This document shows positions 1,340-55,342 of a DNA stretch of 64,000 nucleotides, piece by piece. The notes below the pieces were generated by a model. That model saw only the letters and a program-made list of their open reading frames with translations. It was not told the DNA's origin and did not search any database. The stretch covers positions 1,555 to 65,554 of the forward strand of contig MFSH01000008.1 in assembly GCA_001784875.1 (NCBI GenBank), in the 5' to 3' direction. Positions within the stretch are counted from its first letter, which is position 1. Every line of letters starts with the position of its first letter. The DNA is from Candidatus Moranbacteria bacterium RIFOXYB1_FULL_43_19 (GTDB taxonomy: Bacteria; Patescibacteriota; Minisyncoccia; Moranbacterales; UBA11712). Both the position numbers and the translations under genes were made by a program.

Positions 1340-1413
1340 CGGTAACAATGGTTATTAGCGGCTGGAAGAGTCGTTAGTTCCTGGTTATCAGAAAAACCAA
1401 TAGGCAATAAAAC

Positions 1414-3159
1414 CTATGGCTTATCTGCGATTTCTTTGTTTATCTTGGCTAAAAATTTATCGAGCTTCATTGCGCCAAGGTCTCCTTTTTCGCGGTCGCG
1501 GACGGCAACGGTTTTGGATTTCACTTCTTTCTCTCCAACAATCAGCATATAATTGATTTTTTCATTTTGGGCGGTGCGAATCCTTTTTCCAAGAGATTCA
1601 GAGGACTCACGAATTAGGGAACGAATATTATGCGAATGTAAGAATGAATTTATGTCCTCGCCGTATTTTGCAAATTTATCAGAAACCGGGATAACTTCAA
1701 CTTGAACAGGAGAAAGCCAGAGCGGAAAAGAACCCGCGTAATTTTCTGTTAAAATTCCGATAAAGCGCTCAAATGAGCCAAAAACAGCGGCGTGAATCAT
1801 GACCGGGACAGCTGGTTTGCCTTTTTTGTCTATATATTCCAAACCAAATCTCTGCGGCATTTGGAAGTCAAGCTGGATAGTTGCCAGCTGCCAGCTTCGC
1901 CCCAGTGCGTCTTTGATTTCAATGTCGATTTTCGGGCCATAAAAAGCCCCGTCTTTTTCTTTGATTTCGTATTTAACTTTTTCTTTTTTAAGAGCGTTTG
2001 CGAGATTTTTTTCCGCCTTGTCCCATTCCGATTTTTTGCCCATAAAATCATCCGGGCGCGTAGAGAGATAAAAGTTAGGCTCAATTCCAAAAGCGGGATA
2101 ATATTCTTTCACCATTTTGATGAGGCTTGAAATTTCTTTTTCGACTTGGTTTGGAAGACAGAAGATATGGGAATCGTCCTGGGTGAGATAACGCACACGG
2201 AGAAGGCCGTTGAGCTCTCCCGATTTTTCATTTCGCATAATGCGTCCGATTTCAGAAAAGCGGATGGGAAGATCACGGTAAGACCTGGTTGTTTCTTTGT
2301 AGATTAAGATATTGAAAGGGCAGTCCATGGGTTTCAGGCAGTAGGTTTCATTTTCTGATTTAATGGAGAACATACTATCCTTGTAGTGGTCCCAATGGCC
2401 GGATTGTTTCCAGAGGATATTTTTGGCGATAAGCGGTGTCTGGATTTCCTGAAATCCATATTTTCTGCGCAGTTCCTTTCCATATTTTTCCATTTCGTTC
2501 CAAATCGCCATTCCTTTGGGGTGCCAAAAAGCGGAACCGGGAGATTCGGCGTGGAAAGAAAAGAGACCAAGGTCGCGCCCAATTTTTTTGTGGTCGCGCT
2601 TTTCCGCTTCGGCAAGCGCAGCAAGATAGTTTTTGAGTTCTTTTTCCGTTGCGAACGCCACGCCATAAATTCTCTGGAGCATTTTATTTTTTTCATCACC
2701 TTTCCAATAGGCGCCGGAAATTCTGGTGAGCTTGAAAGCTTTTGAATTTATTTCACCGGTGGAATCGAGGTGCGGACCCGAGCACAGATCGACAAAATCG
2801 CGTAACGCGTAACATGTAACCCGCAACATTTTTTTGCTTTTTACTTCTTTTTGTAAGTCTTTAATCAATTCAATTTTGTATAACTGCTTGCTTTTTTTGA
2901 ATCTTTCCGTTGCTTCTTTGGCCGGGATGGTGACCTTTTCGAAACTATGGTTTGCTTTGATTATTTTTCTCATCTTGTTCTCAAGTATCTCTAGATCCTC
3001 GGGAATCAATGTCCGGGGCAAATCAAAGTCATAATAAAAACCATTTTCGACTGCCGGTCCAATACCAAAGCGTGCATCAGGAAACATTTCATAAACCGCT
3101 GCAGCCAGGACATGAGCAAGAGAGTGGCGGGCAATTTCTATTTTTTTGATTTTTTCCAT
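1414..3159 (-). CDS. thrS: threonyl-tRNA synthetase; starts at the HSxAH editing-domain motif with no N-terminal TGS domain
   Basis: The product carries HSLAHVLAAAV, FVDLCSGPHL, class II aaRS motifs and a C-terminal anticodon-binding domain. Confidence 0.9.
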   Translation of the reverse strand: MEKIKKIEIARHSLAHVLAAAVYEMFPDARFGIGPAVENGFYYDFDLPRTLIPEDLEILENKMRKIIKANHSFEKVTIPAKEATERFKKSKQLYKIELIKDLQKEVKSKKMLRVTCYALRDFVDLCSGPHLDSTGEINSKAFKLTRISGAYWKGDEKNKMLQRIYGVAFATEKELKNYLAALAEAEKRDHKKIGRDLGLFSFHAESPGSAFWHPKGMAIWNEMEKYGKELRRKYGFQEIQTPLIAKNILWKQSGHWDHYKDSMFSIKSENETYCLKPMDCPFNILIYKETTRSYRDLPIRFSEIGRIMRNEKSGELNGLLRVRYLTQDDSHIFCLPNQVEKEISSLIKMVKEYYPAFGIEPNFYLSTRPDDFMGKKSEWDKAEKNLANALKKEKVKYEIKEKDGAFYGPKIDIEIKDALGRSWQLATIQLDFQMPQRFGLEYIDKKGKPAVPVMIHAAVFGSFERFIGILTENYAGSFPLWLSPVQVEVIPVSDKFAKYGEDINSFLHSHNIRSLIRESSESLGKRIRTAQNEKINYMLIVGEKEVKSKTVAVRDREKGDLGAMKLDKFLAKINKEIADKP

Positions 3160-9797: not shown

Positions 9798-11054
9798 ATG
9801 TCATATTTTGAAATAATCGGGGGAAGAAAATTGAATGGAGAGATCGAAGTGAAAGGCGCCAAGAACGCGGCCTTGAAAGCCGTAGCGTCGGCTCTTTTGT
9901 CGCGTGAAAAATGGACAATTACCAATCTCCCGCAAATCGAGGATATAAGCCGGATTTTGGAAATGGTGGAAGATTTGGGCGCGGAAGCAAAAAGAAGCAA
10001 AAATAAAGTTGAAATTCAAGCCAAAAACATCAAAAAAAGCCGTTTAAGCGAGAGACTGGCCGGAAAACTACGGGCTTCGATAATCCTGGCCGGACCGGTT
10101 CTGGCGCGAACGGGAAAAGTTTCCATGCCTTATCCGGGAGGGTGCGTGATCGGCAAGCGCCCCATTGATTTGTTCCTCGCCGGATTCCAGAAAATGGGAG
10201 CCAAAGTGAAATGGCAGGATGACCATTTCAGTTTGTCCGCCAAAAAACTAAAAGGCGCGAAAATATTTTTTCCAAAAATAACCGTGACGGGAACAGAAGC
10301 CATGATGATCACGGCGGTTGTAGCGGAAGGAGAGACGATTCTTGAGAACGCTGCCATGGAACCGGAAATTCCGGCTCTGGCGGAATTTCTCAATCGCTCT
10401 GGCTCAAAAATATCAGGCGCCGGAACGCCGACCATCAGAATAAAAGGGGTGAAAAAAATCGGAGGCGGCCGGATGAAAATTATTCCGGACCGGATCGAAA
10501 CAGGGACATTTGTCATACTCGCGGCGCTTTGCGGAGGAAAAATAAAAATCAAGAACTGCAATCCGGACCATATCAGAGCATTCCTTGCGAATATTCAAAA
10601 AGCGGGTGTCCGGATCGAGGAAGAAAATAACGAGCTTGTCGTTTGGGGAGCGGAAAAAATAAATCCGGTCAACGTGTCAACCCACGAATATCCAGGATTT
10701 GCGACTGATCTTCAGCCGCCTTTCACGCTGCTCATGACGCGGGCCAGGGGGACAAGCCAAATTCACGATCCTATTTTTGAAGGGAGACTGCTTTTCACGG
10801 ATATTTTGAATTCGATGGGAGCGAATATTGTTCTCAATGATCCGCATCGGGCGACGGTTCAAGGGCCGACGAAACTGCGAGGGAGAAAAATTGCGAGCCC
10901 TGATCTTCGGGCGGGGATTACACTTCTTCTTTCCGGACTCATCGCGAAAGGGAAAACGACCGTTGAGAATATTTATCAGATTGACAGGGGATATGAAAGG
11001 ATTGAGGAGAGGCTGCAAAAGTTGGGAGCAGATATCAAGCGAATCGAGAAATAA
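9798..11054 (+). CDS. murA: UDP-N-acetylglucosamine 1-carboxyvinyltransferase
   Basis: The N-terminus reads MSYFEIIGGRKLNGEIEVKGAKNAALK. An active-site Cys lies in the PYPGGCVIGKRPID region (characteristic MurA/EPT fold). The ATG at 9798 is preferred over the upstream TTG. Confidence 0.9.
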   Translation: MSYFEIIGGRKLNGEIEVKGAKNAALKAVASALLSREKWTITNLPQIEDISRILEMVEDLGAEAKRSKNKVEIQAKNIKKSRLSERLAGKLRASIILAGPVLARTGKVSMPYPGGCVIGKRPIDLFLAGFQKMGAKVKWQDDHFSLSAKKLKGAKIFFPKITVTGTEAMMITAVVAEGETILENAAMEPEIPALAEFLNRSGSKISGAGTPTIRIKGVKKIGGGRMKIIPDRIETGTFVILAALCGGKIKIKNCNPDHIRAFLANIQKAGVRIEEENNELVVWGAEKINPVNVSTHEYPGFATDLQPPFTLLMTRARGTSQIHDPIFEGRLLFTDILNSMGANIVLNDPHRATVQGPTKLRGRKIASPDLRAGITLLLSGLIAKGKTTVENIYQIDRGYERIEERLQKLGADIKRIEK

Positions 11055-11058
11055 AAAT

Positions 11059-11190
11059 AAAATCCTAAATCCTAAATCCTAAACTCTAAACAATATCAAA
11101 ATTCAAATTATAAAAATTCAAAACCGTTTTGAAAATTTGTATTTTTGAATTTGAATTTGTTTAGGATTTAGTGCTTAGTGCTTAGGATTT
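11059..11190. repeat. long (~130 nt) near-perfect palindrome between murA and mreB, ending in a T-run; likely acts as a terminator
   Basis: The left arm AAATCCTAAATCCTAAATCCTAAACTCTAAACA mirrors the right arm TGTTTAGGATTTAGTGCTTAGTGCTTAGGATTT. The spacer is itself palindromic. TTTTTTATTTT follows. Confidence 0.5.
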
Positions 11191-11198
11191 TTTATTTT

Positions 11199-12206
11199 AT
11201 GTTTATCAAAAAAATCGGCATTGATTTGGGAACCGCCAACACCCTTGTCTTTCTTCCGGGCAAGGGGATTGTTGTCAATGAGCCGTCTGTTGTGGCTATT
11301 TCCCTCATTGACAATAAGATTCTGGCGGTCGGTAACGAAGCCAAGGAAATGATGGGGAGAACGCCCGAATCCATCACCGCCCAAAGACCCCTGAAAGACG
11401 GTGTAATTGCGGATTATCGGATTACAGAAGCTATGCTTCGCTACTTTATAAACAAAGTAAGCGGCGGTTTTCGGCTAGTGCGACCCGAGGTTATGATTTC
11501 GATTCCGGCCGGAGTCACGTCGACAGAGCGCCGGGCGGTTATTGACGCAGCGGTAAAAGCTGGCGCCAAAACGGCCTATGTCGTCAAAGAGCCGGTTCTG
11601 GCGGCGATTGGAGCGGGGATTCCCATCAACAGTGCGGCGGGAAATATGATTGTTGATATTGGAGGAGGAACGAGCGAAGTGGCAATCATATCTCTCGGAG
11701 GAATTGTGGCGGCTCACAGCGCGCGGGTGGGGGGAAACAAGATAGACCAGGCAATTGCCGATTTCATAAAAAAGAAGCATGGCCTCGCCGTCGGGGAACG
11801 GACAGCCGAGGAAATAAAAATCGCGATCGGGAGCGCCATGCCGCAGACAAAAGATGAATATGTCGAAGTGCGAGGACGCGATCTCATCGCGGGACTTCCG
11901 AAAACAATCCGTGTTTCAGCGAATGAAATGACGGAAGCCATCCAAGACGAGCTTCGGGAAATCATAAACGCGATCAAAAGGGTTCTTCAGGAAACGCCAC
12001 CTGAATTGGCAGCGGACGTAATTGACAAGGGAATGATTCTTTCGGGAGGCGGAGCGCTGCTCCGGAATCTCGATCAGCTTATCACAAAGACAACCGGTGT
12101 TCCGTGCTATGTCGCGGATGATCCGCTTCTTTGCGTCGCAAAAGGAACGGGAATTGCTCTCGAACATCTGGAGATGTATAAGAGAACTATAATGATGTCG
12201 AAATAA
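11199..12206 (+). CDS. mreB: rod-shape-determining protein MreB (paralog 1)
   Basis: The N-terminus reads MFIKKIGIDLGTANTLVF and the actin-fold motifs are present. The ATG at 11199 is used because the track's GTG at 11178 lies inside the palindrome. Confidence 0.9.
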   Translation: MFIKKIGIDLGTANTLVFLPGKGIVVNEPSVVAISLIDNKILAVGNEAKEMMGRTPESITAQRPLKDGVIADYRITEAMLRYFINKVSGGFRLVRPEVMISIPAGVTSTERRAVIDAAVKAGAKTAYVVKEPVLAAIGAGIPINSAAGNMIVDIGGGTSEVAIISLGGIVAAHSARVGGNKIDQAIADFIKKKHGLAVGERTAEEIKIAIGSAMPQTKDEYVEVRGRDLIAGLPKTIRVSANEMTEAIQDELREIINAIKRVLQETPPELAADVIDKGMILSGGGALLRNLDQLITKTTGVPCYVADDPLLCVAKGTGIALEHLEMYKRTIMMSK

Positions 12207-12297
12207 ATCACGAAACACGTAACACAAAAAGAAATGAATTAGGCGAGTTATTATTTAGTTCGGAGTATAGAGTTATGTGCTATGTGTTATGAGTTAT

Positions 12298-13404
12298 ATG
12301 ACTATTGGAATTGACGCCAGTCGCGCGTTTCAAAAAAACAAAACCGGGATTGAAGAGTATTCCTATCAGGTTATCAAGCTCCTGCGCGATTTTTTTAAGG
12401 GCGATCAAGTGATTTTATATTGCAATCCGGCGATAAATATAAAACCGGATTTTAGCTTTCCCGAAAATTGGCAGGTGAAAAATTTGCGCGCGCCGATTTT
12501 TTGGACGCAGGCAAGGCTGTCGCTTGAAATGCTGTTTCATCCCGTGGACGTGTTATTCGTGCCAGCGCATACGGTGCCGCTCATCCATCCCAAAAATACA
12601 ATTGTCACTGTCCACGGCCTTGAATTTGAATTTTGCCCGAAAGCCTATTCGCCTTGGCAAAGATTTTATATGCGCTTCGTGATCAAAAATTCCTGCCGTT
12701 GGGCGAAAAAAATAATCGCAGTGAGCGAGAATACGAAGTCTGACTTAATATCAAAATATAATGTTGATGAAAAAAAAATAAAAGTAATATACGAGGGCTA
12801 CAGCGAGTATAATTTTCAATTTCCAATTTCAAATTTTAAATCGAGTCCAAATAATAAAATTTCAAATTATAGAGGTTACATCTTATTCATAGGGCGCCTC
12901 GAGAATAGAAAGAACATCAATGGTATAGTTGAGGCCTTTGAAATTCTGAAAGAGAAATACAAAATTGCGCATAAATTGATCCTGGTTGGCAAGTTTGGCT
13001 ATGGAGGGGATAAAATAAAAGAAAAAATATATAAAAGCGAATACAAAAACGACATTATTTTGACAGGATACGTGAGCGAAGAGGATAAATATTATTTGCT
13101 GAAAAGCGCGGGTATGTTTTTGTTCCCGACATTTTATGAAGGGTTTGGACTGCCGATTCTCGAAGCGCAGAAGGTCGGCACGCCGGTCGTCACTTCGAAT
13201 GTTTCTTCAATGCCGGAAGTGGCAGGGGATGGGGCGGTTTTGGTTGACCCGAAAGATCCGGGCGCGATTGCGGAAGCGATTTATAAGCTCGTCTCGGACG
13301 AAAGCTATAAAAATGATATAATAGAAAAAGGCCTTGCGAACGTGAAAAGATTTTCGTGGGAAAAATGCAGCCGCGAAATCGCGGATGTAATTCGTAATTT
13401 GTGA
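12298..13404 (+). CDS. GT4-family glycosyltransferase
   Basis: The N-terminus reads MTIGIDASRAF and the retaining-GT EX7E motif (FPTFYEGFGLPILEAQKVGTPVV) is present. The start may be at 12277, 12289 or 12298. Confidence 0.8.
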   Translation: MTIGIDASRAFQKNKTGIEEYSYQVIKLLRDFFKGDQVILYCNPAINIKPDFSFPENWQVKNLRAPIFWTQARLSLEMLFHPVDVLFVPAHTVPLIHPKNTIVTVHGLEFEFCPKAYSPWQRFYMRFVIKNSCRWAKKIIAVSENTKSDLISKYNVDEKKIKVIYEGYSEYNFQFPISNFKSSPNNKISNYRGYILFIGRLENRKNINGIVEAFEILKEKYKIAHKLILVGKFGYGGDKIKEKIYKSEYKNDIILTGYVSEEDKYYLLKSAGMFLFPTFYEGFGLPILEAQKVGTPVVTSNVSSMPEVAGDGAVLVDPKDPGAIAEAIYKLVSDESYKNDIIEKGLANVKRFSWEKCSREIADVIRNL

Positions 13405-13487
13405 ATTTGTAATTTGGATATTTTGAATACTCTCATATATGCATATGTGCATATATGAGAGTGTGCGCACTACGATATATCGTAGTG
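13381..13487. repeat. family D 3'-end element (GATGTAATTCGTAATTTGTGAATTTGTAATTTGG plus two perfect hairpins)
   Basis: The element overlaps the last codons and stop of the GT4 gene. The hairpins CTCTCATATATGCA/TGCATATATGAGAG and CACTACGATATATCGTAGTG follow. A paralogous copy lies at the uvrA 3' end. Confidence 0.5.
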
Positions 13488-19823: not shown

Positions 19824-20876
19824 ATGCTTTCAAAAATATTCGGGAAATTTTCAAAAGATATCGGGATTGACCTTGGAACGGCCAACACTTTGGTTTATGT
19901 CCGTGACAAGGGAATCGTCATCAACGAGCCCTCGGTGGTGGCCGTCAACCAAAAAACGGGACAGATCCTGGCTATCGGCTCCGAGGCCAAAAAAATGGTC
20001 GGGAAAACTCCTTCGCATATTGTTGCCACGCGGCCTCTCGTTGATGGAGTTGTTTCTGATTTTGAAGTTACGGAACAGATGCTTCGCTATTTCATCGAAA
20101 AAGTCCATCAAGGAAGTTCGGCCTTTTTTTCCCGCCCCCAAGTGGTGATCGGAATTCCATCGGGAGTGACTGAAGTGGAAAAAAGAGCGGTGGTCGACGC
20201 GGCAGTCAGTGCCGGAGCGCGAAAAGCCTATCTTGTCGACGAGCCTATGGCGGCGGCTATCGGTGCCCGGCTTCCAGTCCAGGAGGCTTCAGGGAATATG
20301 ATAGTTGACATTGGAGGCGGCACGACGGAAATTGCGGTGATATCGCTTGGTGGAGTGGTTGTTTGCCGGAGTCTCCGTATTGCGGGGGACGAAATGAACG
20401 AAGACATTATCCGCTTCGCCCGGGACGAATTCAACCTTCTTCTTGGGGAAAAAACAGCTGAAGATATCAAAATTGCCATCGGGAGCGCCTATGAGCTCAA
20501 TGAAGTTCTGGAAATGCCGATGCGCGGAAGAGATCTCGTGACGGGCCTTCCTAAAGAAGTAATTGTGAACGATGCCCAAATCCGGGAAGCTATTTTCCGG
20601 TCGATAAAGATTATCGTCAACAATATCAAGTCAACTATTGAAGAAACTCCTCCGGAGCTTCTTTCTGATATAATGCAAAGGGGAATAATCCTGGCCGGCG
20701 GCGGGAGCCTCATTCGGGGGATCGAAAGGCTTATTTCCGAGCAAACTGATATGCCTGTCCGGGTAATGGATGATCCTCTGACGGCGGTTGTCCGGGGAAC
20801 GGGAATAATTCTTGAACACATTGACGAGTTGAAAGATATTTTGACGGAAACGCAGTACGATAAGGTATCTTTTTAG
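19824..20876 (+). CDS. mreB: rod-shape-determining protein MreB (paralog 2), followed by mreC, mreD and PBP2
   Basis: The N-terminus reads MLSKIFGKFSKDIGIDLGTANTLVYV. Confidence 0.9.
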   Translation: MLSKIFGKFSKDIGIDLGTANTLVYVRDKGIVINEPSVVAVNQKTGQILAIGSEAKKMVGKTPSHIVATRPLVDGVVSDFEVTEQMLRYFIEKVHQGSSAFFSRPQVVIGIPSGVTEVEKRAVVDAAVSAGARKAYLVDEPMAAAIGARLPVQEASGNMIVDIGGGTTEIAVISLGGVVVCRSLRIAGDEMNEDIIRFARDEFNLLLGEKTAEDIKIAIGSAYELNEVLEMPMRGRDLVTGLPKEVIVNDAQIREAIFRSIKIIVNNIKSTIEETPPELLSDIMQRGIILAGGGSLIRGIERLISEQTDMPVRVMDDPLTAVVRGTGIILEHIDELKDILTETQYDKVSF

Positions 20877-20970
20877 TAGCTGGTAGCTAGTATATGGTAT
20901 CTGGTATATTTTTTTTGATATCAATAAAATAAAATACTAAATACTAAATAACAGATACCAAATACAAGTC
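20874..20970. repeat. family B repeat (GGTATCTGGTAT / ATACTAAATACTAAATA...GATACCAAATAC)
   Basis: The same motifs occur in-frame in the MiaB-like gene at 711-750 and 983-1024. Confidence 0.45.
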
Positions 20971-21774
20971 ATGACATTTTTTTCCCGCAAAAACACAAAA
21001 TTCATATTCACGGTTGTTCTTCTGCTATTCATTGTTTTTCTTTCTTTCCGCGGGGCGGATAATCCGGTCAAGGGAACGACTCTCTGGCTGATCAGCCCGT
21101 TTATGAAGACTTTCCGCATTTTTTCCGGAGGCGTCCAGGGCTTTTTTCACTTTCTCGGATCAATTGGCGAGCTCAAAGAAGATAATGAAAAACTGCTGAA
21201 TGAGAATCAGAACCTTTCGGCGGAAATCGCAAGGCTCAAGGACACGGCGGAGGAGAACAAGGTTTTGAGATCAGAAATGAGCCTTATCCCAAAGGCAAAA
21301 TATGACCTTGAAGCAAGTTTTGTGATCGGGCAAGACGCACTGGGCTCGGGAAGTTCGATTTTCATAGATAAGGGAGAAAATAAGGGAATCAGAGAAGGTA
21401 TGGCGGTCATTGTTTCAAATGGTATTCTGGTCGGGAAAATAAATCAGGTTTTTCCGGATACATCAAAAGTGGTTCTTATTTCCGACCGGGAAAGCGCTAT
21501 AGCCGGTGAAGTTTTGGAATCGGGAGCGAAGGGTATAATCAGAGGAACATACGGGCTCGGGACCATGATGGATATGATTTCTCAGGCTGAAGTTGTCAAA
21601 GAAGGAGATACGGCCATCACATCAGGTTTGAGAGGAGGTATTCCGAGAGGATTGCTTATTGGAAAAATCGGGCAAGTCGAACAATCAGAAGACAAACTTT
21701 TCCAGCAAGCCACAATTTTTCCGTCAGCCAATTTTTCCTCCCTCAAAGTTGTTTTTATTGTGAAAAGTTTCTAA
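20971..21774 (+). CDS. mreC: rod-shape-determining protein MreC
   Basis: An N-terminal TM segment and a coiled coil are followed by the beta domain (GDTAITSGLRGGIPRGLLIGKI). Confidence 0.8.
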   Translation: MTFFSRKNTKFIFTVVLLLFIVFLSFRGADNPVKGTTLWLISPFMKTFRIFSGGVQGFFHFLGSIGELKEDNEKLLNENQNLSAEIARLKDTAEENKVLRSEMSLIPKAKYDLEASFVIGQDALGSGSSIFIDKGENKGIREGMAVIVSNGILVGKINQVFPDTSKVVLISDRESAIAGEVLESGAKGIIRGTYGLGTMMDMISQAEVVKEGDTAITSGLRGGIPRGLLIGKIGQVEQSEDKLFQQATIFPSANFSSLKVVFIVKSF

Positions 21775-28730: not shown

Positions 28731-29921
28731 ATGTCTGAAAAAATAGACTTATCACCTATAAAAGAAATGGAACTCCGGGCGTCTCGCATTCCCGGAGTTG
28801 TTTCGCTGGCGCAGGGCGTGCCGTCTTTTGACACTCCGGAAACAGTGAAAAGCGCGGCCATTGAAGCGATTGAGAAGGGGAAGGTGGCCAAATATTCTCT
28901 GGCGCCGGGAACTCTTGAATTCCGGGAAGCAATTGCCCAGCATCTGGAAAAGGAAAACAAATTTTTTGACTTTGAGAAGGAAGTCATCGCCACTGCCGGA
29001 TCCATCGAGGCAATCACGGCGACACTTCTGGCGATTATCGAACCGGGTGACGAAGTTCTGATTCCGGATCCGACTTACACTTCATACCAGTCGGCTATCA
29101 AAGTTGCCCGGGGAGTTCCCGTTTTTGTTCCGCTCGATGAAAAAAATCATTGGGCACTCGACATTGAGAAATTCGAAAAACTCATCACACCGCGGACGAG
29201 AGCTTTTCTTTTTTGCAATCCCAACAATCCGACTGGAACCGTATTTGCTCGCAACCAGCTGCACGCGCTGGCGCAACTGGCCATCAAGCACAATTTATAC
29301 ATTTTGAGCGACGAAGTTTATAAGGATTTCGTCTTTGATTCCGGGGAAAAATTATATTCTCTTGCCGAACTTCGCGGCATCCGTGACCGACTCGTCTACA
29401 TATATTCCTTTTCCAAAGCCTATGCCATGACCGGCTGGCGGATAGCATATCTCGCCACGCATCAGGATCTATCCGCGCGCATTCTGGCGGTTCATGACGC
29501 GCTGGTCACCTGCGCGCCGGTCATTTCCCAATTCGCGGCCCAGGCGGCGCTTGAGATGGCCGATAAGGAGGTCATGCGTTTTAGAAATTATTTCCGGAAA
29601 AGACGGGACCTCATCTGCAAAAGACTGGACAAACTCAGCCACGTTTTTGAATATCAGAAACCGGACAGCGCCTATTTTGTGTTTCCCCGGATAAAAAAGG
29701 ATATTCTGCAAAAAATTGCCCCTGATGGCGGTTCCTGGCAGTTTGCGATAGAATTATTGGAGAAAGCCAAAGTGGCTACAGTCCCCGGTTCGGCTTTCGG
29801 TCCCAACGGCGAAAACCATATCCGGATGTGTTTTGGAAGGAGCGAAGAAGATATTAATTTGGCCTTTGACAGGATGGAAAAATATTTCAATGAACAAGGA
29901 ACAAAGATCAACGATCAATAA
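28731..29921 (+). CDS. class I/II PLP-dependent aminotransferase (AspC family)
   Basis: The PLP-lysine motif SFSKAYAMTGWRIAY is present. Confidence 0.8.
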   Translation: MSEKIDLSPIKEMELRASRIPGVVSLAQGVPSFDTPETVKSAAIEAIEKGKVAKYSLAPGTLEFREAIAQHLEKENKFFDFEKEVIATAGSIEAITATLLAIIEPGDEVLIPDPTYTSYQSAIKVARGVPVFVPLDEKNHWALDIEKFEKLITPRTRAFLFCNPNNPTGTVFARNQLHALAQLAIKHNLYILSDEVYKDFVFDSGEKLYSLAELRGIRDRLVYIYSFSKAYAMTGWRIAYLATHQDLSARILAVHDALVTCAPVISQFAAQAALEMADKEVMRFRNYFRKRRDLICKRLDKLSHVFEYQKPDSAYFVFPRIKKDILQKIAPDGGSWQFAIELLEKAKVATVPGSAFGPNGENHIRMCFGRSEEDINLAFDRMEKYFNEQGTKINDQ

Positions 29922-29967
29922 TTTTTTGTTCGTTGTTCTTTGATCATTGATCATTATCTAGGTAAGT

Positions 29968-47393: not shown

Positions 47394-47539
47394 GATATCA
47401 CTATATCACTATATTATAATTTGTGGTAGTATCTATATGGACGTATCTATTTTTTACCTATATAATAATTGAACATGAAATTCCGCGGTTGAATATTTGC
47501 TGCGCAAATTCAACTGGGCAGGCAAAATTTAATCTAAGT

Positions 47540-49522
47540 ATGTCGAAGTTCAAGATAAATTCAAAATTTCACCCCGACGGTGACCAACCGAAAGCAATTA
47601 AGCAGCTGACGGCTGGTCTTAAGGATGGCATGAAATTCCAAACCCTTCTTGGTGTGACGGGGTCAGGGAAGACTTTCACGATGGCGAATGTCATCGAAAA
47701 TGAGCAAAAACCAACTCTCGTGATCGCGCCGAACAAAACGCTTGCAGCCCAGCTCGCCCAGGAATTCCGGACTTTTTTTCCAAAAAACGCGGTGGAATAT
47801 TTCGTTTCCTACTATGACTACTACCAGCCGGAAGCATATATTGCGTCCTCGGATACCTACATTGAAAAAGAATCCCAGATAAACGACGAAATTGACCGAC
47901 TGCGGCACGCGGCGACGGTAGCGGTTATGTCGCGGCATGATGTGGTCATTGTCGCGTCAGTGTCGTGTATCTATGGTCTCGGATCACCCGAATTCTATGA
48001 AGAGATTTCTCTTAGCTTCAAAGTGGGGGAGGCAATTGATCGGGAAAAACTGATTCAGGATCTCACGGAAATGCACTTCCTTCGCAGTGAATATCTGTCT
48101 CGCGGGAGGTTTCGCTCTCATGGAGATACGATTGAAGTGATGGCTCCGTCGCGGGAAATTGTCACCAGAATAGAATTGAGAGATGGGAGAGTGAGAACTA
48201 TAAGCGAATATGATTTTCTCACCGGCGAGGCGCTGGGAAAATTGGAAAAAGTTTTAGTCTATCCTGCCAAGCATTTTGTCGTTCCGGAGCCGGTGATGGA
48301 AGAAGCGCTTCATGAGATAGAAAAAGAATTGAGAGACAGGGTGAATTATTTCAAGAAGAATAATAAATTATTGGAAGCGGAAAGGATATACCGGCGGACC
48401 AAGCAGGATCTGGAAATGATGCGGGAAATCGGATATTGCAACGGAATTGAAAATTATTCCCGTTATCTCACCGGCCGCGCTCCGGGAGAAGCGCCGTATA
48501 CGCTGGTGGACTATTTCGGCAAAAATTTTCTCATGGTGATAGACGAATCGCATGTGACCGTGCCCCAGCTCAACGGAATGTATAACGGCGACCACGCCCG
48601 CAAGAAATCTTTGATCGACAACGGTTTCCGTCTCCCGAGCGCCTATGACAACCGGCCGCTTAAATTCAGCGAGTTTGAGAAAAAAATAAATCAAGTGATT
48701 TTCACTTCGGCAACTCCGGGAGGATACGAAACACGTAACTCGCAACACGTAGCACATAACACAAGTGGAATTGTGGAACAGATTATCAGGCCTACTGGGT
48801 TAGTGGATCCTGAATTAGTAATTAAGCCAGCCAAAGGACAAGTGAAGGATATAATTGAAGAAATAAAGAATGTGGTGGCGAAGAAAGAGCGGGTGCTCGT
48901 GACGACGCTCACCAAAAAAATGGCCGAAGACCTCGCGGAATTTTTGAAAGAAAACGAAATAAAATCCGAATATTTGCATTCGGGAGTGGATACGATGGAG
49001 CGAGTGAGAATTCTCGAAAATTTGAGAAGGGGAAAATTTGACGTGCTTGTGGGAGTTAATCTTTTGCGAGAAGGTTTGGATCTCCCTGAAGTTTCGCTCG
49101 TCGCAATACTCGACGCGGACAAAGAAGGCTTTTTGCGCTCCGAAACTTCGCTCGTGCAAACAATCGGACGCGCGGCGAGGAACATTTCCGGGAGAGTTAT
49201 ACTTTATGCCGACAAAGTCACCGGCTCGATGAAGCGGGCGATCAATGAAACGAACCGTCGGCGCGCCACGCAGACAAAATACAACAAAAAACATCGTATC
49301 ACGCCGACAACCATCAAGAAAAAAATCGAATCTATCGTCGATCACGAGCTGAAGCCGGAAATTCCGCGGGAATTCGTGAAACTCGAATCGCTCGAGGATA
49401 TTGCCGGATATGTGAAACAAAAAGAAGCCGAAATGAAATCCGCCGCCCGAAATATGGAATTCGAAAAAGCGGCGGTGATTCGGGACGAAATCATCCAGCT
49501 CAGGAAATTGCAGATGGGGTAA
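47540..49522 (+). CDS. uvrB: excinuclease ABC subunit B
   Basis: The N-terminus reads MSKFKINSKFHPDGDQPKAIKQL. The product carries the Walker A motif GVTGSGKT, helicase motifs and a C-terminal UVR domain. The ATG at 47540 is preferred over the track start. An in-frame ACACGTAAC-type repeat lies at 48726-48766. Confidence 0.9.
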   Translation: MSKFKINSKFHPDGDQPKAIKQLTAGLKDGMKFQTLLGVTGSGKTFTMANVIENEQKPTLVIAPNKTLAAQLAQEFRTFFPKNAVEYFVSYYDYYQPEAYIASSDTYIEKESQINDEIDRLRHAATVAVMSRHDVVIVASVSCIYGLGSPEFYEEISLSFKVGEAIDREKLIQDLTEMHFLRSEYLSRGRFRSHGDTIEVMAPSREIVTRIELRDGRVRTISEYDFLTGEALGKLEKVLVYPAKHFVVPEPVMEEALHEIEKELRDRVNYFKKNNKLLEAERIYRRTKQDLEMMREIGYCNGIENYSRYLTGRAPGEAPYTLVDYFGKNFLMVIDESHVTVPQLNGMYNGDHARKKSLIDNGFRLPSAYDNRPLKFSEFEKKINQVIFTSATPGGYETRNSQHVAHNTSGIVEQIIRPTGLVDPELVIKPAKGQVKDIIEEIKNVVAKKERVLVTTLTKKMAEDLAEFLKENEIKSEYLHSGVDTMERVRILENLRRGKFDVLVGVNLLREGLDLPEVSLVAILDADKEGFLRSETSLVQTIGRAARNISGRVILYADKVTGSMKRAINETNRRRATQTKYNKKHRITPTTIKKKIESIVDHELKPEIPREFVKLESLEDIAGYVKQKEAEMKSAARNMEFEKAAVIRDEIIQLRKLQMG

Positions 49523-50377: not shown

Positions 50378-53254
50378 ATGAATAAGATCATTATAAAAGG
50401 TGCTAGAGAACATAATCTCAAAAACATCGACCTTGAACTTCCGCGGGGGAAGTTTATCGTGTTCACGGGAATCAGCGGGTCGGGAAAAAGTACACTCGCA
50501 TTCGACACCATTTTTGCCGAAGGGCAAAGGCGGTATCTTGAAAGTTTGTCGAGTTATGCCCGGCAGTTTTTGGGACAAATGGAAAAACCGGATGTGGATT
50601 CAATCGAAGGTTTGAGCCCTGCGATTTCGATTGACCAGAAAGCCTCATCGCACAATCCGCGCTCGACAGTCGGGACAGTGACGGAAATCCAAGACTATCT
50701 GCGGCTTCTCTATGCCAAAATCGGACGGCCGCACTGCCCGGTATGTGGAAAAGAAATTTCGAAACTTTCAATTGATGAAATTGTGGATCGGATACTAACA
50801 TTCAATGCTCCGGGAACATTGAATGTTTTAGAAATTCTTTCACCGGTAGTCCGCGAGCGGAAAGGTGATTATGCCACGCTTCTTGCGGAGATGTGGAAAA
50901 GGGGATTCGCGGAGGCCTACGTGGATGGAAAAAAAGTGGTCCTCGAAGATGAAGCGAAAAAAGGAAAAATACTCGCCAGATACAAAAAACACAGCATTGA
51001 TATTTTGATTGATACGGTTGAAATCAGCGATAAAAATATTAGCCGGATATTTGAAAGTGTTGAGTCGGCGCTCAAGTTGTCTAAGGGATTGGTGAAAGTT
51101 ATTCCCGAAACGCATAACACGAAACACGACACGCGAGGGGAAGGGATTATTTTCAACCAAAATATGGCTTGTCCGGATCATGAGGACGTGGTTTTCCCAG
51201 AACTCGAGCCGAGGCTGTTCTCTTTCAATAGTCCGCAGGGGGCTTGTCCTGACTGCGAAGGATTGGGAACGAAAAAAGAAATTGATCCGAGCCTCATCAT
51301 TCCCGACAAAACCCGAACGATTGCCGAAGGGGCGATCATGCCCTGGAGCTACAAGCCGAACAACTACCAAGGCTCGATTTTGCGGGCGGTGACGAACTAT
51401 TATCATATTCCCGACAACGTCCGTTTCCGGGATTTGAGCGAAAAACAGCAAAATATTTTATTGTATGGGGATGAGGAACCAGAGGATATTGAAGTGCGGC
51501 TGAAGACAAAAACCGGAGCAGTTTGGCGCTTTGACGTCACCTGGAACGGAATTTTGGGCTTTATGCGCGACCGCTATTTCAAGACCGAATCGGAAGCGGT
51601 GCGGCAGGACATTGAAAAATATATGTCCCAAAGTCCGTGCAGCGCCTGCAAAGGTTCACGATACAAGCCGGAAGCGCTGTTAATAACAGTTGGAAGTCGT
51701 AATATTGCCCAAGTTTCAAAAATAAGCGTAAATGAAACGCTGAAATTTTTTGAGAGTTTGAAACTGAACGAGCGGGAAAAAATAATCGCGGGAAAAATCT
51801 TGAACGAAGTGAAAAGCCGCCTGAAATTTTTGGATGATGTCGGGTTGGGCTATTTGACCCTGGCCCGTTCAGCCAATACTCTGGCAGGCGGAGAAACACA
51901 GCGAATTCGTCTTGCTTCTCAAATCGGTTCGCAACTGGTCGGAGTCCTATACATTCTCGACGAACCGTCTGTTGGTCTTCATGCACGTGACAATGCGAAG
52001 CTTCTTGATACGCTGCTTAAGTTGAGAGACATTGGCAACACAGTGATTATTATCGAACATGACGAGGAAACTATCCGGAGTGCCGATCATCTGGTTGACA
52101 TCGGGCCGGGTGCGGGAAGGCTTGGCGGGGAGATTGTGGCTGAAGGAAAAATTAAAGATATCGAAACTGCTAAGAATTCTGTCACTGGCAAATACTTACG
52201 GGGAGAACTTGAAATTTCAATCCCAAAGGGTCGCCGGCCAGTGCGAAACAAAAAATGGCTGACCGTGAAAGGAGCGACAGAGCATAATCTCAAAAACGTG
52301 ACGGTTGAATTTCCTTTGAAAACTTTGACGTGCGTGACGGGCGTTTCGGGGTCGGGAAAATCAACACTCGTCGAAGACATTCTTGGAAAAGGACTTTCAG
52401 CAAAAATCATGCGTTCGCTGGAGCGGCCAGGCCGGCACAAGGAAATTCTCGGTACGCAGTATGTGGACAAAGTGATCCATATCAACCAGTCGCCGATCGG
52501 GAGGACGCCGCGATCGAACCCGGCGACATATGTGGGATTTTTCACACTGATTCGAGAACTTTTTGCGATGACAAAAGATGCGAAGCGGCATGGTTATGGT
52601 CCGGGAAGGTTTTCTTTCAACGTGAATGGGGGGCGTTGCGACAATTGCCGCGGGGAAGGATTTTTGAAAGTTGAAATGCAGTTTATGCCGGATGTATTTT
52701 TGCCGTGTGATGTCTGTCGCGGAAAAAGATACAACCGGGAAACGCTCGAAGTGAAATATAAAGGAAAAAATATCGCCGATATTCTCGCGATGACGGTTTC
52801 GGAAGGAAAAGTTTTTTTTGAAAATTATCCACGGATATATGCGCCGCTCAAAGTCCTCGAGGAGGTCGGGCTGGGATACATCAATCTTGGCCAGGCGGCG
52901 ACAACGCTCTCGGGCGGGGAAGCGCAGAGAATCAAACTGGCCTCGGAACTTTCGCGGCGGATGACCGGAAATACATTATACATTCTTGATGAGCCGACAA
53001 CAGGACTGCATTTCGACGACGTGAAAAAATTATTGAACGTTCTCCATCGCTTGGTGGAGGCGGGAAATACTGTTATTGTGGTTGAGCACAATATGGATGT
53101 TATCAAAACGGCCGATTGGATCATTGACCTTGGACCGGAAGGCGGGGACAATGGCGGACGCGTGGTGGTCACCGGCCCGCCGGAAGAAGTGGTGAAGTAT
53201 CATCAAGAAAGTTATACCGCAAAATTTCTTCGCGACGTAATTCGTAAATCGTAA
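50378..53254 (+). CDS. uvrA: excinuclease ABC subunit A
   Basis: Two ABC ATPase modules (GISGSGKSTL, GVSGSGKSTL), zinc fingers and LSGGE signatures are present. An in-frame ACACG repeat lies at 51107-51137. The last codons lie inside a family D repeat. Confidence 0.92.
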   Translation: MNKIIIKGAREHNLKNIDLELPRGKFIVFTGISGSGKSTLAFDTIFAEGQRRYLESLSSYARQFLGQMEKPDVDSIEGLSPAISIDQKASSHNPRSTVGTVTEIQDYLRLLYAKIGRPHCPVCGKEISKLSIDEIVDRILTFNAPGTLNVLEILSPVVRERKGDYATLLAEMWKRGFAEAYVDGKKVVLEDEAKKGKILARYKKHSIDILIDTVEISDKNISRIFESVESALKLSKGLVKVIPETHNTKHDTRGEGIIFNQNMACPDHEDVVFPELEPRLFSFNSPQGACPDCEGLGTKKEIDPSLIIPDKTRTIAEGAIMPWSYKPNNYQGSILRAVTNYYHIPDNVRFRDLSEKQQNILLYGDEEPEDIEVRLKTKTGAVWRFDVTWNGILGFMRDRYFKTESEAVRQDIEKYMSQSPCSACKGSRYKPEALLITVGSRNIAQVSKISVNETLKFFESLKLNEREKIIAGKILNEVKSRLKFLDDVGLGYLTLARSANTLAGGETQRIRLASQIGSQLVGVLYILDEPSVGLHARDNAKLLDTLLKLRDIGNTVIIIEHDEETIRSADHLVDIGPGAGRLGGEIVAEGKIKDIETAKNSVTGKYLRGELEISIPKGRRPVRNKKWLTVKGATEHNLKNVTVEFPLKTLTCVTGVSGSGKSTLVEDILGKGLSAKIMRSLERPGRHKEILGTQYVDKVIHINQSPIGRTPRSNPATYVGFFTLIRELFAMTKDAKRHGYGPGRFSFNVNGGRCDNCRGEGFLKVEMQFMPDVFLPCDVCRGKRYNRETLEVKYKGKNIADILAMTVSEGKVFFENYPRIYAPLKVLEEVGLGYINLGQAATTLSGGEAQRIKLASELSRRMTGNTLYILDEPTTGLHFDDVKKLLNVLHRLVEAGNTVIVVEHNMDVIKTADWIIDLGPEGGDNGGRVVVTGPPEEVVKYHQESYTAKFLRDVIRKS

Positions 53255-53325
53255 TTTGTAATTGGGATAATTTTCACTACAACTAGTTGTAGTGAGTTTT
53301 ACTACTATATATAGTAGTAAAATAA
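53231..53325. repeat. family D 3'-end element (GACGTAATTCGTAAATCGTAATTTGTAATTGGG plus two perfect hairpins)
   Basis: It supplies ...DVIRKS-stop to uvrA. The hairpins CACTACAACTAGTTGTAGTG and TTTACTACTATATATAGTAGTAAA follow. Confidence 0.5.
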
Positions 53326-54043: not shown

Positions 54044-55342
54044 ATGTCAATGCAAACCATAAAATCTAAAATCTCCAATCTCCCCAAATCTCCCGGTGTA
54101 TACGAATTTCGCGATAAGCAAGGGAAAATTCTTTATATTGGGAAAGCAACGAGTCTTAAGAGCAGGGTGGGGAGCTATTTCGGAAATTTTTCCAAGACTA
54201 AGTCTTGGAAAACCACAAAACTTAGTCTTGAGAGAGGGCCACGGATTGTTGAAATGGTCTCGCGAGCTACAGAAGTAAAAATCCATGAAACCGATTCGGT
54301 TCTCGAAGCCTTGATTTTGGAATCGAATCTCATCAAAAAGTACCAGCCGAAATATAATGTGATGGCGAAAGATGACAAGAGTTTTGGCTATTTTGTGATC
54401 ACCAAAGAAAAATTTCCGCGAGTGGTGATTTTCTGGAAAACGGAGCTGGGGAAAGTGCCGGCAAAAAAAATATACGGGCCGTATCTATCAAAATATCAAA
54501 TGAATATTGCTCTGAAACTGATTCGCCGAATTTTTCCGTTTCATTCCAACAAGCAGCAAACCGAAAAAGGGTGCCTTGATTTCCAAATCGGCCGGTGTCC
54601 CGGACCGTACGTGGGAGCTATTACGAAAAAAGATTATCTCAAAAATATCCGCAATATCGAGATGATACTCCGAGGCGAAAAAAAGCGGCTCGTCAGCTCG
54701 CTTAAAAAAGAAATGAAAAATTGCGCGAAGAACCACGAATTCGAAAAGGCCGCCGAAGCCCGCAACCGAATTTTCGCGCTCGAACATATCAGGGATGTTG
54801 CATTGATAAACCAAGACTTAGTCTTGGAAAATTCCAAGACTAAGTCTTGGGGAAGGATCGAGGCCTATGATATTTCCAATATCGGCGGTGATTATGCGGT
54901 TGGTTCGATGGTCGTTTTCACGAACAGCAAAGCGGATAAAAACGAATATCGTAAATTCAAAATCAAAACAGTCATTGGTGTTGACGATGTTGGTATGATG
55001 AAAGAAGTTTTAGCTCGGCGTTTTAGGAATAATTGGCCGAAACCGGACCTGATTCTCCTCGACGGGGGGAAGGGCCATCTCAATATGGCCCAGAAAATAA
55101 TGGAGGAATTGAAACTCGAAATCCCGATCATTGCTGCTGCCAAAGGGCCGACACGAAAAAAAATCGATATCTACCAGTCAAAATACCTCTTGACATATCT
55201 TGGTCGAAATGAGGAAATAAGGGAGAGGTATAACAGTATATTGAGTGATGCGAAGCTAATCGAGAGAATTCGCAACGAAGCCCATCGCTTTGCGATCAGT
55301 TATCACAAGAAATTACGACAGAAAAATTGGAAAAGTAGATAA
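54044..55342 (+). CDS. uvrC: excinuclease ABC subunit C, short form lacking the C-terminal (HhH)2 domain
   Basis: The GIY-YIG module (GVYEF...ILYIGKA), a UVR domain (EFEKAAEARNRIFALEHI) and an RNase-H-like endonuclease domain are present. Two in-frame CCAAGACTAAGTCTTGG insertions lie at 54192-54232 and 54811-54851. Confidence 0.8.
   Translation: MSMQTIKSKISNLPKSPGVYEFRDKQGKILYIGKATSLKSRVGSYFGNFSKTKSWKTTKLSLERGPRIVEMVSRATEVKIHETDSVLEALILESNLIKKYQPKYNVMAKDDKSFGYFVITKEKFPRVVIFWKTELGKVPAKKIYGPYLSKYQMNIALKLIRRIFPFHSNKQQTEKGCLDFQIGRCPGPYVGAITKKDYLKNIRNIEMILRGEKKRLVSSLKKEMKNCAKNHEFEKAAEARNRIFALEHIRDVALINQDLVLENSKTKSWGRIEAYDISNIGGDYAVGSMVVFTNSKADKNEYRKFKIKTVIGVDDVGMMKEVLARRFRNNWPKPDLILLDGGKGHLNMAQKIMEELKLEIPIIAAAKGPTRKKIDIYQSKYLLTYLGRNEEIRERYNSILSDAKLIERIRNEAHRFAISYHKKLRQKNWKSR

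Follow-up and report, generated by a model that had tools for sequence, protein, structure and literature searches.

Degenerate heptanucleotide tandem repeats within uvrB, uvrA and thrS and downstream of mreB in a Candidatus Moranbacteria genome

Repeat arrays in uvrB, uvrA and thrS and after mreB

A stretch of 64,000 nucleotides (nt) of contig MFSH01000008.1 of Candidatus Moranbacteria bacterium RIFOXYB1_FULL_43_19 (the window) was analyzed for a family of short repeats, family C, which a first-pass annotation had placed in-frame in uvrB, uvrA and thrS and directly after the mreB stop codon. The four sites were present at the positions claimed, with a related repeat family in-frame in the three genes and after the stop, and are genuine heptanucleotide tandem repeats of one unit family. 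The genes and arrays concerned were as follows.

1414-3159, minus strand: thrS gene, threonine--tRNA ligase (ThrRS) of 581 amino acids (aa); Pfam tRNA_SAD, tRNA-synt_2b and HGTP_anticodon
2799-2829, minus strand: family C array in thrS, plus-strand units CGCGTAA CGCGTAA CATGTAA CCCGCAA
11178-12206, plus strand: mreB gene, Pfam MreB_Mbl (E = 1.9e-136), TAA stop at 12204-12206
12207-12229, plus strand: family C forward arm after mreB, units ATCACGA AACACGT AACACAA, starting one base past the stop
12270-12297, plus strand: reverse-orientation arm, absent from the first-pass annotation, units GAGTTAT GTGCTAT GTGTTAT GAGTTAT (lag-7 matches 17/21)
47540-49522, plus strand: uvrB gene, 660 aa, ATG start MSKFKINSKF; Pfam UvrB domains on homologues
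48726-48767, plus strand: family C array in uvrB, six units ACGAAAC ACGTAAC TCGCAAC ACGTAGC ACATAAC ACAAGTG
50378-53254, plus strand: uvrA gene, recorded as UvrA, with matches to solved UvrA chains
51104-51138, plus strand: family C array in uvrA, five units CCCGAAA CGCATAA CACGAAA CACGACA CGCGAGG
53235-53262, plus strand: CGTAATT-type array related to family C, likewise absent from the first-pass annotation, units ACGTAAT TCGTAAA TCGTAAT TTGTAAT (lag-7 matches 18/21)

The unit had been described as an 8-mer, ACACGTAAC, or a 6-mer, AACACG; its true period was 7, with the autocorrelation peak at lag 7 at all sites. Matches at lag 7, out of 21, were 15 in uvrB, 16 in uvrA, 16 in thrS and 14 after mreB, against at most 13 at the other lags from 3 to 12. 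The family C unit was accordingly defined as a heptamer of consensus NAACNYR (e.g., AACACGT, AACGCGT, AACATGK). The common motif exceeded chance: AAC-N4-AAC-N4-AAC occurred four times in the window (0.53 expected; 0 of 100 shuffles reached four), all four in thrS, uvrB and uvrA, and the four consensus units were mutually more similar than their letter-shuffled versions (P ~0.001). The word AACACG was not enriched in the window (19 against 18.3 expected), and ACACGTAAC with one mismatch allowed (7 against 3.2 expected) was counted as not enriched, so that it is the tandem array of 7-nt units which carries the family C signal. At a score of 30, Tandem Repeats Finder reported the thrS copy alone among the four sites, the uvrB, uvrA and post-mreB copies being too degenerate for it; heptamer arrays were scored instead by a lag-autocorrelation scan with shuffled controls. 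Identical UvrB, UvrA and ThrRS proteins were recorded from 7, 8 and 11 contigs, respectively, and the arrays are therefore not an assembly artefact.

The uvrB array encoded (YE)TRNSQHVAHNTSG, also written (Y)ETRNSQHVAHNTS(G), between SATPGGYE and IVEQIIRPTGL, and one peptide across the insert is NSQHVAHNTSGIVEQIIRPTGLVDPELVIK. Comparisons were made with loci labeled L001-L019 and L081-L087 and with Moranbacteria UvrB homologues labeled P0001-P0120. Relative to the ancestral loop, uvrB had a net gain of exactly 21 nt (three units; 7 residues), and the gap against solved structures (9gy7, 1t5l) was likewise exactly 7 residues. The canonical 12-residue loop, SATP-ADYEKKNSAQIV-EQIIRPTGL, had the length found in Bacillus caldotenax UvrB. 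The segment was thus no ancestral loop of normal length, since it exceeded by 7 residues every solved UvrB and the 74 of 120 Moranbacteria homologues with the canonical loop. The empty site, GAT TAT GAG CGA AAA AAT TCG GCN CAA ATT GTC GAG, was carried by the close relatives L001, L003, L005 and L014 and by the more distant L019. An orthologous array, 21 nt longer than the empty site, was present in the window, L002 and L084; having the same six units with unit-specific variants in common, these arrays were inherited.

At the same uvrB site, L085 carried the same family as ACATGTA units, L006 a different heptamer array (CGAAAGT), and L016, L017 and L018 small perfect palindromes. Inserts of +4 to +42 residues occurred at this one position in 44 of the 120 homologues and were very diverse in sequence, including heptamer-derived peptides (KSKVKSQ..., KSEIRNPKS...) and hairpin-derived peptides (VETRHASSL, PHPNPPLIKG, APKAPLGALGA). 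No inverted repeat was found in or near the uvrB array (48650-48850), and no target-site duplication was evident at its junctions. A poor AlphaFold model (mean predicted local distance difference test score 65.9) placed the insert between a helix and a strand, as coil of low confidence. The longest uvrB open reading frame (ORF), from GTG 47423, comprised 699 aa, and this form is the one given in some databases (P0001, P0243); its first 39 residues (47423-47539) are an over-extension, because homologues (MSKFK or MKFK) and the NCBI record start at ATG 47540.

The uvrA array encoded PETHNTKHDTRG within a variable loop that precedes the FNQNMACPDH motif. A short loop, VKVRSGKSEYIYNQ, occurred in L003, L005 and L013, and the shortest close relatives were 9 residues below the window. 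The family C array at this loop was common to the window and L002; L001 and L084 had long CACAAAx arrays there, and L018, L008, L011 and L019 unrelated inserts. The loop of Mycobacterium tuberculosis UvrA was merely 2 residues shorter than that of the window, so that the uvrA segment is an insertion only relative to its closest relatives. The CGTAATT-type array at the 3' end of the gene encoded the last UvrA residues (VIRKS) and the TAA stop, where relatives end in ...ILKK or ...VLNK.

Other repeats were observed in and beside uvrA. An in-frame inverted repeat at 50797-50827 (arms AACATTCAATGCTCC / GGAACATTGAATGTT, 93% complementary) encoded TFNAPGTLNV, 3 residues more than in close relatives. 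L008, L016 and L017 each had a different perfect palindrome at this UvrA position, where L011, L012 and L019 carried inserts of other kinds, and this variety marks it as a second insertion hot spot in UvrA. Just downstream of the uvrA stop and the CGTAATT array lay two perfect palindromes with 11-nt arms, at 53274-53295 (TCACTACAACT/AGTTGTAGTGA) and 53299-53320 (TTACTACTATA/TATAGTAGTAA); the first, with a T run after it, looks like a terminator.

On the coding strand, the thrS array read TGTTGCG GGTTACA TGTTACG CGTTACG CGAT, encoded MLRVTCYALRD and adjoined FVDLCSGPH. It overlapped the conserved strand VTxY...F, aligned to VTLYSQGDF of the solved Staphylococcus aureus ThrRS. Among 120 ThrRS aligned, the canonical form was ...KENPKAKTVSIYRTGNFVDLC (579 aa) and that of the window ...KEVKSKKMLRVTCYALRDFVDLC, a net gain of 2 residues. 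In L082, GTTACGG units added 21 nt to thrS immediately before the VTxY strand; L081 had GTTACAT units, and L083 had AAATACC units in that same place. Empty sites (L086, L087) read GTC ACA ATT TAC (VTIY) or GTT TCC GTT TAT (VSVY). A local seed in thrS is plausible, because GTC ACA ATT TAC already resembles two GTTACNN units.

The post-mreB copy was the weakest of the four (3 units, 14/21), and L081 and L083 had longer arrays at the same position. The reverse arm downstream of it corresponded to the complement of AACTCAT/AACACAT units and ended at ATG 12298 of a glycosyltransferase gene. The two arms paired in the predicted fold, yet the whole spacer was no better than shuffles (z = -0.77). Inverted heptamer arrays occupied this spacer in the window, L081 and L083; it measured 19 nt without an array in L082, and ~110 nt with G+C-rich inverted repeats, as judged by eye, in L086 and L087. 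A second mreB paralogue lay ~8 kb from the first (19824-20876), followed by mreC and a penicillin-binding protein gene, and heptamer arrays followed both paralogues.

The comparison with related genomes thus yielded empty sites for uvrB, thrS and the mreB spacer. The first-pass description of the segments as inserts applied to uvrB, a true 21-nt insertion; it did not extend to uvrA, whose loop varies in length generally, or to thrS, with its net gain of only 2 residues. It is hardly credible that the segments are ordinary ancestral loops whose codons are alike by chance. The uvrA loop is about equally long in M. tuberculosis, the thrS segment is near canonical length and aligned to a conserved strand, and neither plain word was enriched, all of which would agree with chance. 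The lag-7 peak at every site, the significant enrichment tests and the retention of the 7-nt register by orthologous arrays in other species speak against it, and for uvrB it is refuted by the gain of exactly 7 residues and the empty sites of close relatives. Nor did the resemblance reduce to shared His, Thr and Asn codons or to codon bias, because the copy after mreB encodes no protein and that in thrS (LRVTCYALR) is read from the opposite strand.

Heptamer arrays in the window and in Moranbacteria

Period-7 arrays numbered 25, 17 and 15 in the window at thresholds of at least 14, 15 and 16 of 21 matches, respectively, against 3.1, 1.0 and 0.3 expected. At 16/21, other periods gave at most 3 arrays each for periods 4-13, 6 for period 14 (2x7) and 5 for period 15. 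Unit types numbered ~25, e.g., AAATACC/CAGATAC, AAATCCT, CGTAATT and AAGAATT. Family C had been put forward as a distinct family living inside repair and translation genes; it was a real unit family, one of those ~25 heptamer types, and was not special to such genes. Despite a coding density of ~91%, 8 of the 25 arrays were inside ORFs (P ~1e-12), and heptamer arrays as a class are strongly excluded from coding sequence. The arrays outside ORFs occupied intergenic DNA or gene ends, frequently in inverted pairs, and the intergenic inverted pairs were predicted to form long hairpins, imperfect in that each 7-nt unit had one mismatch. Three of these hairpins, which may be terminators, were:

11052-11200: inverted-pair hairpin, z = -8.1
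29880-29965: inverted-pair hairpin, z = -4.7, its first arm encoding C-terminal residues of an aminotransferase gene (28731-29921)
20868-20972: inverted-pair hairpin, z = -2.8

The RNA fold of the in-gene arrays was not significant (z = -0.9, -1.4 and 0.0 for uvrB, uvrA and thrS, respectively). Rfam matched two tRNAs only in the window, and no Rfam family matched the arrays.

Further in-frame arrays were observed in the window. A miaB-like radical-SAM gene (2-1342, minus strand), which runs past the left end of the window, kept an open frame through two AAATACC/CAGATAC-family arrays at 699-754 and 982-1031, encoding SKIQNTRYKIPDTKKK and KILNTKYQILNIK; a KSLAL peptide was repeated in its C-terminal part, and miaB of L083 had arrays in similar places. 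The glycosyltransferase gene contained an in-frame array at 12805-12846 (ATTTTCA ATTTCCA ATTTCAA ATTTTAA) in its inter-domain linker, residues 177-190 counting from the listed GTG start at 12277, and a long, near-perfect palindrome, CTCTCATATATGCATATGTGCATATATGAGAG, followed a TGTAATT array at the end of this gene (13434-13466; fold z = -4.1). CTAAAAT-type units formed an in-frame array in uvrC (54052-54088), at residues 3-15 of UvrC.

The bacterium, uncultured and from groundwater, belongs to the candidate phyla radiation (Patescibacteria); its closest UvrB relatives were Moranbacteria and Parcubacteria metagenome-assembled genomes. Lag-7 arrays numbered 67 in 447 kb of Moranbacteria loci, against 0-14 for each of the other periods tested (5-11). 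Their density in Moranbacteria was 1.5 per 10 kb, compared with 0.18 per 10 kb for the 1.04 Mb surveyed from other bacteria; loci of other candidate phyla had 0-3 lag-7 arrays each. Scored as at least three NAACNYR units, family C was counted 19 times across 464 kb of Moranbacteria loci, distributed over more than 10 different sites, and 1.05 Mb from other bacteria yielded no such array. Sites additional to the four included miaA (in-frame, L082), an ORF of L019 and the spacer upstream of a DUF763 gene (L017, L085).

A different tandem motif, ATATCACT, was observed in the divergent DUF763-uvrB spacer of the window (2.5 copies, 47395-47414). A related motif, CACTATATCAC, adjoined family C arrays in L017 (~7870), L083 (~21735) and L085 (~4000). 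In L017 and L085 it stood in the spacer preceding the DUF763 gene, and in L083 close to the 5' end of a gene for a peptidase S24. The motif is possibly a promoter or operator that has been conserved.

The window, L001, L002, L003, L005 and L018 formed a star-like clade (neighbor-joining, UvrA+UvrB). A sister-species relation of the window and L002, which could have explained their common arrays, found no support in this star-like tree, with the two as exclusive sisters in 0 of 200 bootstraps. Unit number varied between species in thrS, uvrA and the mreB spacer. Arrays of different genomes were distinguished largely by a single change repeated throughout their units, which had GCG in L002 and L084, ACG in the window and ATG in L085. 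Genome-wide CpG decay was rejected as the cause of the CGCG, CACG, CATG series, as the observed/expected ratio of CpG was 1.2-1.4 in the clade of the window and that of CGCG was 1.4-2.6 in all 14 loci examined. Loci of one genome tended to share one unit variant, as concerted evolution would have it, as a trend only (permutation P = 0.07). Among near-identical strains, arrays were identical within protein clusters, in a small sample of strains compared as protein sequences only.

It is very unlikely that the arrays are contingency loci, at which gain or loss of one 7-nt unit would switch uvrB or uvrA on and off and give a reversible mutator state. Nucleotide excision repair genes are dispensable for growth, and 7 is not a multiple of three, so that slippage by a single unit would shift the frame. 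In the same family, however, is the array of thrS, an essential gene; neighboring units differed by 1-2 nt, which would suppress slippage; unit number was equal in three species; and the array was identical in near-identical cluster members and across 7-11 contigs. Heptanucleotide phase variation does exist in Haemophilus (PMC8262952), and such contingency repeats resemble family C in having a heptanucleotide unit that would shift the frame on slippage. Unlike contingency repeats, which are long, perfect and polymorphic within populations, family C was short, imperfect and invariant in the available strains.

Coding register and relation to known repeats

As 7 and 3 are coprime, a perfect heptamer array is translated into one and the same cyclic heptapeptide whichever of its three frames is read. 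A perfect family C array in the forward direction translates as HVTRNT-stop or RVTRNA-stop, with one stop per 7 codons. At the would-be TAA codons, CAA was found in uvrB of the window and AAA in uvrB of L002 and L084 and in uvrA of the window and L002, and both the uvrB and the uvrA arrays ended at the next would-be stop codon. In reverse, family C reads VTRYALR and is free of stops, as in LRVTCYALR of ThrRS and YALRVTRY of MiaA in L082. The same stop-codon argument was made for TAACTGA repeats by MacGregor (2015, PMC4679880).

Cyanobacteria and Beggiatoaceae are known to carry dispersed families of heptamers. The STRR1-3 units of heterocystous cyanobacteria are CCCCAGT, TTGGTCA and CAACAGT, and these cyanobacterial STRR heptamers were reportedly described by Mazel in 1990. 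STRR proper was ruled out here, the units being AACRCGT and other A+T-rich types and the host Candidatus Moranbacteria. In Nostoc, small dispersed repeats of 21-27 nt, said to have been described by Elhai et al. in 2008, are reportedly tied to heptamer tracts and in some cases lie within genes. Family C would resemble them in being very short, dispersed, heptamer-associated and partly intragenic; the Nostoc repeats are said to be fixed units that insert into heptamer tracts, whereas here the tract itself was the repeated entity. TAACTGA direct repeats are dispersed in Beggiatoaceae and Cyanobacteria (MacGregor 2015, PMC4679880). Like STRR and TAACTGA repeats, the Moranbacteria arrays were lineage-specific, dispersed tandem heptamers, with TAA-containing units that are limited by stops and tend to abut gene ends. 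They differed in unit and phylum, in the occurrence of many unit families together, in being present inside ORFs with the stop-phase unit mutated, and in the intergenic inverted pairs that form hairpins.

Heptanucleotides are reported to be the most abundant long-unit repeats in bacteria, and polymerase slippage has been proposed for them (Mrazek, Guo and Shah 2007, via PMC4679880; PMC4692102). Like such long-unit simple sequence repeats (SSRs), the Moranbacteria arrays had head-to-tail 7-nt units, over-represented period 7 and a mostly intergenic position, with slippage as the proposed origin. Tandem 7-nt units, an excess of period 7 and dispersal in the lineage were all found; variation in copy number between close strains was not. 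The arrays differed from long-unit bacterial SSRs in being degenerate, in belonging to dispersed families, in having a bacterium of the candidate phyla radiation as host and in being fixed in-frame, in several cases, in conserved housekeeping genes.

In-frame insertion in housekeeping genes is known from the Rickettsia palindromic elements, which are ~150 bp long and palindromic and encode a conserved peptide (PMC10969869). As in that system, family C was in-frame in unrelated conserved genes, at fold-compatible positions, with presence and absence among relatives; unlike it, family C was a tandem array of 20-45 nt with variable unit number and no palindrome. The main rival explanation, an unlikely one, is that each array is a whole or half copy of a very small, non-autonomous mobile element, similar to a miniature inverted-repeat transposable element (MITE), a Rickettsia palindromic element or a cyanobacterial small dispersed repeat, which would insert at many sites, ORFs among them, and be mobilized by an enzyme encoded elsewhere in the genome. 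Such an element would account for the occurrence at more than 10 non-orthologous loci in one lineage only, for clean presence or absence in uvrB, thrS and the mreB spacer, where the empty sites are intact, and for the different repeat types, perfect palindromes included (L016, L017, L018), that the same UvrB and UvrA loops hold in different genomes. The long hairpins of the intergenic inverted pairs (z = -8.1, -4.7, -2.8) would also agree with it, as would the non-significant tendency of loci of one genome to one unit variant. The MITE and Rickettsia comparison bore out in-frame insertion with empty sites but not a palindromic element of fixed length: the arrays differed in unit number and had no fixed length, terminal inverted repeats, recognizable target-site duplication or common ends, uvrB had no inverted repeat in or near its array, and the thrS array merged with ancestral codons rather than interrupting them. 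No transposase, RAYT-type or reverse-transcriptase domain was found in the 52 window ORFs scanned against Pfam, nearly all of the long ones.

Taken against these systems, the arrays are a known repeat class in a new lineage, unusual for their in-frame presence in conserved genes and with a clear rule of survival there. The literature search found no paper that linked heptamer repeats with Parcubacteria or candidate-phyla-radiation bacteria.

Origin and significance of the arrays

The explanation favored, with a probability of about 0.6, is that the arrays are degenerate, STRR-like heptanucleotide SSRs made by slippage, and that selection kept those copies in tolerant loops that maintained the frame and were free of stops. 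Heptamer arrays of many unit types are about tenfold more frequent in Moranbacteria than arrays with other periods, and most of them are found in intergenic DNA or at gene ends. Slipped-strand mispairing of 7-nt units, or their unequal exchange, would give rise to arrays and alter their length, as is taken to happen with SSRs in general. In thrS, seeding may have been local, since the ancestral VTxY codons GTN ACN NNN TAC resemble two GTTACNN units. Survivors within genes are those that kept the frame, as the 21 nt gained by uvrB did, and avoided in-frame stops, at insertion-tolerant positions of the protein such as the one that holds unrelated inserts in 44 of 120 UvrB homologues. Once fixed, arrays were inherited, being orthologous in three or four species and without length variation in near-identical strains. 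Spread of family C to non-orthologous loci would have come about by copying of array pieces (template switching, ectopic conversion) or by slippage that favors this unit. The extra residues translated are probably neutral loop filler and not functional.

Several results weigh against this explanation. Slippage alone leaves unexplained that one unit family was present in species with UvrB proteins only 75% identical, at over 10 unrelated loci, and the parallel change in every unit (CGCG, CACG, CATG) was also without explanation. The imperfect units, and arrays of constant length in near-identical strains, give no sign of active slippage. The lengths of UvrB inserts were not enriched in multiples of 7 residues among the 120 homologues, so that frame-keeping did not proceed strictly in steps of three units. 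The uvrB arrays of L002 and L084 matched at 93% of nucleotides and at 14 of 15 third positions, compared with 27-60% third-position identity in flanking blocks. Nucleotide identity of the window and L002 arrays was 76% in uvrB and 88% in uvrA, and 23 of 28 third positions in the two arrays together were identical (hand count), compared with ~52% gene-wide. Residues encoded by the arrays had the lowest amino-acid identity in the gene. Conserved third positions with drifting residues suggest, from few comparisons, a constraint at the nucleotide level (DNA or RNA) or a repeated, biased correction toward the family consensus.

A constraint of that kind would be expected if the arrays were functional cis-elements at the DNA or RNA level, either protein sites in a 7-nt register or a signal that acts on mRNA stability, transcription or translation speed. 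The residues encoded would then be a side effect that is tolerated; this reading is rather improbable. Synonymous positions conserved well above the gene background, encoded residues that were not, a family consensus kept across distant Moranbacteria and hairpins made by intergenic arrays at gene ends would fit such a role, and cold-shock-type proteins bind heptamer repeats, one per 7 nt (PMC4679880). It is countered by the ~25 unit types in the one 64-kb window, which argue against a single recognized motif, by close relatives without the array at each of the four sites, and by the lack of significant structure or Rfam match for in-gene arrays; the evidence of conservation comes from two or three species pairs and short segments. 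An alternative that combines origin and constraint is also doubtful: the arrays would not be passive products of slippage, a family-specific process would seed and maintain them, through a copy mechanism or a nucleic-acid-reading protein with a 7-nt register, and selection at the nucleotide level would keep them. If true, it would account for one unit family at many unrelated loci across the phylum, for the synonymous conservation in the uvrB and uvrA arrays while amino acids drift, and for the repeated hits on single UvrB and UvrA loops.

In at least one lineage of the candidate phyla radiation, short tandem repeats that are normally intergenic also form a steady source of new loop sequence for highly conserved enzymes. 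The enzymes concerned are UvrB, UvrA and ThrRS, and also MiaB, MiaA, UvrC and a glycosyltransferase. The survival rule, by which stop-bearing units persist in genes only with every third unit mutated, predicts which arrays can survive. Inserts derived from arrays inflate apparent protein divergence and create spurious low-complexity segments that appear novel in proteins of metagenome-assembled genomes; they also mark the insertion-tolerant positions of UvrB and UvrA. Star-like species radiations could be resolved with such arrays as rare genomic changes, an example being the uvrB array common to the window, L002 and L084, and the synonymous conservation within arrays is a concrete hint that these repeats may not be mere junk.

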